Shown piece after piece: positions 6,522-6,908 of a DNA stretch of 16,069 nucleotides. Numbering within the stretch: the stretch's first letter is position 1; each line of letters opens with the position of its first letter. Location of the stretch: the IMG/VR virus record IMGVR_UViG_2526164651_000005; one strand, given 5' to 3'. Source of the DNA: a virus (taxonomy: Duplodnaviria; Heunggongvirae; Uroviricota; Caudoviricetes). A model generated the notes under the pieces. The model had not been told where the DNA came from. It saw only the letters and a list, made by a program, of their open reading frames with translations, and did not search any database. The translations under genes and the position numbers were made by a program.

Positions 6522-6547
6522 GCAGCCGGAGCAATCCGGCTTTTTTT
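6522..6547 (+). terminator. Rho-independent terminator (stem GCCGGA, GCAA tetraloop, TCCGGC, then T7)
   Basis: Hairpin at 6525..6540 followed by TTTTTTT at 6541..6547. Confidence 0.7.
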
Positions 6548-6642
6548 GCGTCATTTGAAACGGTATGGAGCACTACTGGCTTTTCGTCACGGTCCGGCAT
6601 AGTTACTATCTGAAACAAACAGACACAACAGAGGAAAACGCA

Positions 6643-6867
6643 ATGCCGATGAAATTTGATGAGATACTTAAACAGCGTGATAAATACCATGCTGACAACA
6701 TGGAGACGATGAATATCACTGATTACCGCGCATTTCTGGAAACGGGGGCGCTGATTGAAAAGGATCATCATGGTTTTGTTCGTTGCGCGCTATCCGGTGA
6801 AATGCTGGCAGTAAATCCTGAACAGACAGATGCATTGATAGAATTTCTGAAAGGGATCAGAGACTGA
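6643..6867 (+). CDS. Hypothetical protein, 74 aa (MPMKFDEILKQRDKYHADNMETMNITDYRAFLETGALIEKDHHGFVRCALSGEMLAVNPEQTDALIEFLKGIRD)
   Basis: GAGGAAAA Shine-Dalgarno 4-5 nt upstream of the ATG at 6643. The 6565 start in the ORF track lacks a ribosome-binding site. The gene is bracketed by two copies of the same terminator. Confidence 0.5.
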   Translation: MPMKFDEILKQRDKYHADNMETMNITDYRAFLETGALIEKDHHGFVRCALSGEMLAVNPEQTDALIEFLKGIRD

Positions 6868-6884
6868 GCACCCATACAGCACAT

Positions 6885-6908
6885 ACAGCCGGAGCAATCC
6901 GGCTTTTT
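6885..6908 (+). terminator. Second copy of the same terminator hairpin (AGCCGGAGCAATCCGGCT plus T-run)
   Basis: Stem-loop at 6888..6903 is identical to the one at 6525..6540 and is followed by TTTTTGTTATTTTTT. Confidence 0.7.

Follow-up and report, generated by a model that had tools for sequence, protein, structure and literature searches.

Why should one small gene of a phage satellite stand alone between two identical terminator-like hairpins, at the junction of the replication and capsid modules? The question is raised by a stretch of viral DNA of 16,069 nucleotides (IMG/VR record IMGVR_UViG_2526164651_000005; this whole stretch is hereafter called the window), for which the original prediction proposed an autonomously expressed moron, inserted by recombination at a terminator. 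Our analysis indicates that the unit of 363 bp is probably a discrete, dispensable, repeat-bounded cassette, which stands between the early operon and the capsid module of E. coli PICIs and carries the gene for a satellite-family protein made without induction.

By its gene content and site, the window is a capsid-forming PICI (cf-PICI) of the EcCIEDL933 / CP-933C type adjoining phoQ. The integrase, AlpA and primase/replication module (Table 1) are accompanied by the element's own capsid protein, prohead protease, portal, head completion and connector proteins, HNH endonuclease, TerS and TerL, the major capsid protein being the first gene of the satellite's own capsid/packaging operon, and the Pfam search found no tail or lysis genes in the island. 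The cf-PICIs are a recently recognised, widespread class of phage satellites with EcCIEDL933 as the capsid-forming prototype (10.1101/2022.09.08.507074). The last ORF of the island (window 13522-13803) is the counterpart of the last island gene before phoQ in EDL933, and the right flank is phoQ, which places the island at the OI-51 site; gene order and site are those of CP-933C / OI-51 / EcCIEDL933 of E. coli O157:H7 EDL933. As in EcCIEDL933 / CP-933C / OI-51 / Sp7, the order at the phoQ-adjacent site is perC, terminator, orf74, terminator, capsid gene, and the slot of orf74 lies between the replication module with its primase and the capsid module, as originally predicted. Unlike EcCIEDL933, the island of the window has lost SSB and the PerC-like regulator through a deletion, because about 494 bp are missing relative to the islands L036 and L077, with the ends joined at a 14-nt overlap (6401-6414). 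Complete SSB and PerC genes are present at this place in L002, L003 and EDL933, and the SSB::PerC deletion is common to the window, L114 and L001.

Table 1. Features of the satellite island in the window, with the evidence for each
Feature	Position	Strand	Description and evidence
Integrase	1-1230		Pfam
AlpA	1605-1793		Pfam
DUF4222 protein, 99 aa	3396-3695		Pfam; RGD at residues 20-22
D5-type primase	3692-5443		Pfam
Last ORF of early (replication) operon	6340..6501	+	53-aa remnant, SSB N-terminus::PerC/PchE C-terminus; Pfam PerC at residues 21-49
T1, first repeat copy	6523..6547	+	Hairpin AGCCGGA-GCAA-TCCGGCT at 6524-6541, then T-run; repeat, terminator and folding scans
Cassette leader	6546..6642	+	Candidate weak promoter and RBS; leader alignment, promoter scoring
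orf74	6643..6867	+	74-aa acidic protein, pI 5.0, net charge about -5; family phrog_1957; sole ORF between T1 and T2
T2, second repeat copy	6886..6909	+	Hairpin at 6887-6904, then T-run; repeat, terminator and folding scans
Capsid-operon leader	6910..7167	+	TGTAAATTATTTGTTCG at 6918-6934; TGTTC at 6929, 6939 and 6949; 17-nt inverted repeat at 7030-7077
HK97-type major capsid protein	7168..8325	+	Pfam Phage_capsid, E = 5e-61; RefSeq annotation of L001
phoQ	14609-16069	-	Right flank

The leader of the capsid operon looks like an activator-dependent late promoter region: its three TGTTC motifs are spaced by exactly 10 nt, no consensus promoter was detected within window 6918-7077, and TGTAAATTATTTGTTCG is kept in the cf-PICIs of Klebsiella, Xenorhabdus and Citrobacter. 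Some further features of the island were noted in passing. The island L001 (strain STEC1587) shares about 98% identity with window 5774-13992 and is more diverged in the left part (88-91%); it is inserted in tqsA, not at phoQ, and its integration module has therefore been swapped. An origin-like region 3' of the primase (window 5460-5705) includes GTCTACC / ATCTACC in inverted copies (5460-5560) and GGTAGATAA repeated four times in tandem (about 5668-5703); the iterons form a long hairpin, giving spurious microRNA matches in Rfam. The DUF4222 protein stands at the position of RgdR (ECs1581), the OI-51/CP-933C-encoded activator of the LEE type III secretion genes (PMC3378721). An identity of orf74 with this LEE regulator of CP-933C was considered and rejected, as RgdR is a basic 99-aa DUF4222 protein encoded elsewhere in the window.

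The repeat that brackets orf74 is exact over 23 nt (CAGCCGGAGCAATCCGGCTTTTT, at 6523-6545 and 6886-6908), with 363 nt from start to start, so that the original observation of one hairpin occurring twice at this distance holds. With up to three mismatches allowed, the window has no third copy, and two matches to the repeat were reached in none of 200 shuffles of the window. Both T1 and T2 score as intrinsic-terminator-like, each with a 7-bp stem including 5 G-C pairs, a GCAA loop and a T-run of 5-7 T, and each folds at about -14 kcal/mol with a z-score of about -4 (-14.3 kcal/mol and -4.1 for T2). T1 begins 23 nt and T2 20 nt past a stop codon, that of the early operon's final ORF and that of orf74, respectively. 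The G+C-rich stem, the GNRA-type loop, the 3' T-run and the location at a gene end are those of predicted intrinsic (Rho-independent) terminators, and T1 and T2 presumably terminate transcription in vivo. The exactness of the repeat over 23 nt is peculiar to the lineage of the window, L001, L113 and L125; since most alleles, including that of EDL933, pair a GAAA loop in the first hairpin with a GCAA loop in the second, this identity is a trait of the window's own lineage. Two other readings of the T1 region were set aside. Attenuator-type pairing of the leader with the hairpin arms was rejected, the complementary leader bases being different among alleles, and the 37-aa 'trigger factor' CDS of RefSeq (window 6489-6602), which crosses the T1 hairpin and is marked as frameshifted both in EDL933 and in TT12A, was almost certainly annotated in error.

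A test proposed with the original prediction was whether related islands differ in the presence of the segment, leaving a single terminator copy behind, and such islands were indeed identified. The island L114, 98% identical to the window on either side and with the same SSB::PerC deletion, lacks exactly one repeat plus the cassette (363 bp), its alignment to the window consisting of two blocks that overlap by the 23 nt. In L002, perC is followed by a single hairpin and then by the same capsid leader, without the cassette, and L036 and L077 likewise carry perC (or its remnant), one hairpin and the capsid leader; the cassette of the window thus stands between genes that are adjacent in these four close relatives, as is the rule for morons. 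The same cassette, with 90.7% identity, is present in L003, a PICI of a different kind with a lambda-E-like capsid protein, a decoration protein and TerS, where it is again bounded by hairpins and the DNA downstream is unrelated to that of the window. Counted over 5426 complete E. coli genomes, the cassette interior was found in 539 genomes at 592 places. The cf-type capsid leader was present in 420 genomes, 216 of them with the junction of orf74, T2 and leader, and the lambda-E-type leader in 598 genomes, with the corresponding junction in 360; about half of the islands of each type therefore have the cassette, in a sampling of islands that is phylogenetically non-independent and dominated by O157:H7. 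Only one type of cargo, the orf74 cassette, was observed in this slot in E. coli, and it is either present or absent.

Bracketing by the hairpin turned out not to be special to orf74, because the same stem is found at several module boundaries. When the window region 6000-7400 was aligned by megablast with the 5426 complete E. coli genomes, 32 of 40 sampled matches began or ended inside a hairpin, starting at 6523 or 6882/6885 or ending at 6908. A scan of IMG/VR for the hairpin gave 120 loci. Its upstream partners in PICIs are perC, ssb, orf83, orf74 or the end of the lambda-E-type capsid module, and its downstream partners are the orf74 leader, the cf capsid leader, the lambda-E-type leader, a cos-like sequence and other modules, so that six kinds of left flank combine with at least six kinds of right flank around a stem that is constant, with loop variation confined to GNAA among the PICI loci. 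In the lambda-E-type islands, the entire capsid and decoration module is likewise bracketed by hairpins; a third copy, GGCCGGAGAAATCCGGCT, lies past this module in L003 (at 8639), L011, L014 and others, followed by the cos-like ACGGGGCGG and then by the TerS gene. Near-full-length matches to the hairpin (24-25 nt) in phage records were confined to Enterococcus phages and one unannotated fecal contig; helper coliphages were rejected as sharers of the hairpin, no coliphage being found among these matches. In the Enterococcus phiFL phages (GQ478081 and related), the match of 24/25 nt lies at or beside the gene for an ArpU-family late-gene regulator, at a similar map position. The occurrence in Enterococcus phages is likely a convergence of terminator sequence, and since the same 18-nt hairpin occurs there, identity of the hairpin is weak evidence of common descent.

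The expression of the orthologue in EDL933 can be taken from published measurements. EDL933_1785 (RS08695, EDL933_RS08695, WP_001132080.1), 95% identical to orf74, is 74 aa long; the EDL933 record has it in the arrangement perC, hairpin, gene, hairpin, capsid leader, and it is listed directly ahead of the capsid gene EDL933_1786 (RS08700) in an omics table (PMC11125564). The "9 kDa EDL933_1785" of CP-933C was detected without inducer, along with a PchE-like regulator (PMC5120812). Under ciprofloxacin, the EDL933_1785 protein changed by -1.48-fold (3 h) and -1.05-fold (12 h) and its RNA did not change, these values being fold changes of a single protein in bulk cultures and compatible with a spontaneously induced subpopulation, whereas the RNA of the island primase rose 5.3-fold and its protein 34-fold; there was no induction of the capsid gene (PMC11125564). 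The genes flanking the T1 hairpin in EDL933 thus respond differently to ciprofloxacin, which fits a basal expression of orf74, with T1 separating it from the inducible early operon.

The leader in front of orf74 was aligned among alleles and scored for promoters. The strong RBS stated in the original prediction was confirmed as AGAGGA at 6630-6635, 7 nt ahead of the ATG. Across 12 distinct leader sequences, hardly any variation occurs in the 3' half (about 6581-6633), despite a mean synonymous difference of about 14% between orf74 alleles. A consensus scan for sigma-70 promoters detected none on the + strand of the 97-nt leader; the best candidate, TTTTCG (6581-6586) and TACTAT (6604-6609) with a spacing of 17 nt, matches 7/12 positions, and we infer that the leader contains a weak promoter. 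Because no leader promoter reaches the consensus thresholds, the basal expression could also be read-through of T1. The proposal of autonomous expression is supported in part, by the uninduced protein and by its independence from the induction of the early operon, and weakened by the lack of a consensus promoter. Rfam gave no match within the cassette. A 100-aa version of the ORF starting at 6565 was rejected as spurious, since alleles differ in its reading frame with respect to the ATG.

Where orf74 came from was then approached through its family. The 74 residues match phrog_1957, a family of undescribed function, over their full length (E = 2.4e-40; 82-position profile), as do all 19 aligned homologues. 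An exhaustive HMMER scan of 1.8 billion proteins identified 22 library representatives at E up to 0.001, of 66-96 aa and with 31-47% identity and conserved motifs, and a profile search added members in Klebsiella, Citrobacter, Enterobacter, Salmonella, Xenorhabdus and Arsenophonus, all of them unnamed, with homologue identity of up to 49%. The family is uniformly acidic (pI about 5), and its more distant members adjoin integrases of other small elements. In the cf-PICIs of Klebsiella/Enterobacter (L004-L007) and Salmonella (L140), the homologue comes after the replication genes and ahead of the capsid gene, and the same slot is used in those of Citrobacter (L134, L135) and Xenorhabdus (L131, L132). 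In L004 it begins 10 nt past the preceding gene and is followed directly after its stop codon by TGTAAATTATTTGTTCG, with a hairpin on neither side; in L008 it comes directly after the origin repeats without upstream terminator, and in a third type of PICI, with a ClpP-capsid fusion, it is located just past the origin repeats. The Xenorhabdus homologue begins 18 nt past a homologue of the window's orf83, so that the pairing of orf83 with orf74 looks ancestral, and orf101, ssb, perC and a terminator look as if they had been inserted between the two in E. coli. Among related cf-PICIs, the orf74 protein has diverged to 32-49% identity, versus 60-82% for capsid, portal and terminase proteins.

The phylogenetic distribution was examined for the direction of change. 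Islands that have the cassette and islands that lack it are intermingled in the tree of the capsid region; its deepest E. coli branches carry the cassette and the outgroups carry a homologue, so that presence is probably ancestral and loss secondary, and loss is presumably commoner than gain, this direction being given by parsimony with outgroups and a tree of a recombining region, from small and non-independent samples. Since the homologues of other genera hold the slot without flanking terminators, a loss through recombination of the repeats is no less likely than the insertion originally suggested, and the repeated absence probably arose through direct-repeat deletion or through replacement by hairpin recombination. 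Exchange is indicated as well: cassette copies about 91% identical in nucleotide sequence precede two capsid modules with unrelated leaders, and in the cassette tree the copies ahead of these two module types are not reciprocally monophyletic, so that exchange at T2 must have occurred more than once.

These results bear first on the reading that orf74 is an imported classical moron, that is, a foreign gene with its own promoter and terminator, inserted at the perC terminator and beneficial outside the satellite life cycle, in defence or helper interference. Such an origin would account for the terminators on either side, for the variable presence at a site otherwise occupied by one hairpin, for a protein seen without inducer and not raised by ciprofloxacin, and for the modest difference in base composition (G+C of 0.44 versus 0.51 for the island; GC3 of 0.43 versus 0.50-0.65). 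We nevertheless consider it unlikely, for the family is confined to satellite-like elements and recurs in the same slot in cf-PICIs of four other genera, tblastn against 50,697 phage records gave no homologue, the basal E. coli lineages and the outgroups have the gene, and the loci examined for flanking DNA, L004 and L008, do without the upstream terminator. The leader shows no consensus promoter, and neither Pfam nor NCBIfam has a family for the protein, nor does it match any PADLOC defence profile at E up to 0.1. Nothing in these searches points to the anti-phage function that had been suggested, and an acquisition from outside the gene pool of the element disagrees with the shared slot in other genera and the absence from phage records. 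The orf74 unit is a moron-like cassette, which has most of the characters of a moron, with a weak candidate for the promoter and without the foreign origin.

A second reading, that orf74 is a working part of the capsid module, either a regulator of the late operon or a morphogenesis helper for the satellite's own major capsid protein, draws on its constant neighbourhood. In E. coli the gene is always directly 5' of a capsid-encoding module, the 576 junction-bearing genomes being close to the 592 cassette places, so that nearly all copies adjoin one of the two capsid modules, and in IMG/VR all 19 junctions are of this kind; the position is the same in the cf-PICIs of other genera. Of the islands sampled in IMG/VR, 15 of the 45 with a capsid gene and none of the 27 without one had orf74 (Fisher p = 5e-4, uncorrected for relatedness). 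There is also a weak profile match to residues 83-121 of N.BspD6I, a strand-turn-strand-helix stretch of its DNA-recognition domain, which we judged not significant at a domain E-value of 0.46. Against a role within the capsid module, about half of the otherwise near-identical capsid-forming islands lack orf74, closely similar cassettes precede two capsid modules with unrelated leaders, the protein is acidic family-wide, and in EDL933 it is present while the capsid gene is uninduced (PMC11125564). We regard this reading as quite improbable, and the dispensable cassette remains the interpretation followed here.

As to the coding capacity itself, the idea of a duplicated terminator, or double insulator, around a chance open frame, to which a short ORF annotated only as hypothetical and without Pfam family might lend itself, is refuted by the coding signature (pN/pS of about 0.16 over 11 distinct nucleotide alleles), the conserved motifs of the library representatives, the confident AlphaFold2 model (pLDDT 86), the strong RBS and the detection by mass spectrometry in two studies (PMC5120812, PMC11125564). 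Judged from its alleles, orf74 is a real gene under purifying selection, and the original expectation of a single coding ORF conserved among homologues is borne out. Its predicted product is small and acidic, of alpha/beta type, and belongs to a family restricted to satellites; the structure prediction and remote-homology search that had been recommended gave the model and the phrog_1957 match, but the PDB contained no significant sequence match and no fold match from which a function could be read.

The following scheme may be proposed for the dispensable cassette. T1 would close the inducible, AlpA-dependent early operon; the cassette would have a low, constitutive transcription, started at a weak promoter in its leader or leaking past T1, and ending at T2; and T2 would keep transcription out of the capsid operon, whose leader starts immediately downstream. 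Both hairpins would be copies of the intrinsic terminator used at several module boundaries of these islands. Because T1 and T2 are direct repeats, recombination or replication slippage could remove the cassette precisely, and recombination at the hairpin between different islands would move it to another capsid module. For the mode of action, we may guess a protein partner, from the helper phage, from the host or from the capsid pathway of the satellite, and not a DNA target, since the orf74 product is small, acidic, fast-evolving and without DNA-binding fold; its restriction to capsid-encoding satellites suggests, again as a guess, a link with that lifestyle. The combined proposal, that orf74 (phrog_1957) is a constitutive factor of own-capsid satellites binding such a protein and that the hairpin is a dedicated recombination joint for swapping and shedding modules, is speculative, and we would not expect it to hold in full; if true, orf74 might separate helper from satellite capsid assembly, or prime the cell before induction.

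The lambdoid morons of HK97 and HK022, in the accounts attributed to Juhala et al. and Hendrix et al. (both from 2000), are reportedly single small genes with a factor-independent terminator, a G+C below that of their neighbours and uninduced expression. The orf74 cassette resembles them in its position between genes adjacent in relatives, its own terminator, its lower G+C and its uninduced protein. It differs from them in that it has no recognisable sigma-70 promoter, that the terminator on both sides is the generic joint of the element, and that the family is satellite-native and positionally conserved across genera, not imported.

SaPIs and PICIs have interference and accessory genes located between their replication and packaging modules, such as ppi, ptiA/B/M and cpmA/B, and Rpp of EcCICFT073, and many of the interference proteins act through binding helper proteins. 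As a gene for a small satellite protein in the same map region, orf74 is comparable, but its product shows no detectable sequence or fold similarity to these proteins, and it is found only in own-capsid satellites, whereas the SaPI/PICI interference factors remodel or redirect helper proteins. PICIs also encode immune systems, and P2 and P4 are said, in work ascribed to Rousset et al. in 2022, to carry defence hotspots. The slot of orf74 is like these hotspots in being fixed while its content differs among close relatives, and unlike them in having in E. coli one type of cargo, present or absent, without match to a known defence family.

In the modular theory of Susskind and Botstein, the modules of mosaic phage genomes are reportedly joined by conserved sequences at their boundaries, or linkers. 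The hairpin agrees with such sequences in being short, conserved and located at module junctions, with combinatorial partners and with alignment breakpoints inside it. It is distinguished from phage boundary linkers in being an intrinsic terminator of 18-23 nt, for which a role as crossover site is presumed; as a terminator, it could be kept constant in sequence by its function alone. Marking most of the module boundaries in E. coli PICIs, the hairpin offers a handle on module shuffling.

Published work on EcCIEDL933 / CP-933C, as far as its available portions go, includes the mutation of packaging genes and the identification of RgdR (10.1101/2022.09.08.507074; PMC3378721), and the available text of the cf-PICI preprint contains no mention of the gene numbers 1783-1786 (10.1101/2022.09.08.507074). 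EDL933_1785, just 5' of the capsid gene of the prototype, thus appears from these portions of the EcCIEDL933 literature to be unstudied. What is new on EDL933_1785/orf74 is that it is an optional, repeat-bounded cassette, that its protein is made without induction, and that in E. coli it is restricted to capsid-encoding islands. The family was found in satellites of at least seven enterobacterial genera, and natural isogenic islands with and without orf74 exist.

Two minor observations concern the homologues outside E. coli. An opposite-strand gene of 170-272 aa lies between the homologue and the capsid gene in the Citrobacter and Klebsiella PICIs (L134, 7316-8134; L135, 6904-7677; L008, 7294-7806 on the - strand); no defence family and no Pfam match above threshold was found for these genes, and the slot between the orf74 homologue and the capsid gene may be a hotspot of accessory genes. 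A homologue is also carried by records deposited as plasmids, CP018459 (Klebsiella, 16,971 bp) and CP038627 / CP123539 (Arsenophonus, about 16 kb), and in the Arsenophonus locus L133 it is located beside a full set of capsid and terminase genes, 3' of TerL; these plasmid records of 16-17 kb may be excised or plasmid-like relatives of cf-PICIs.
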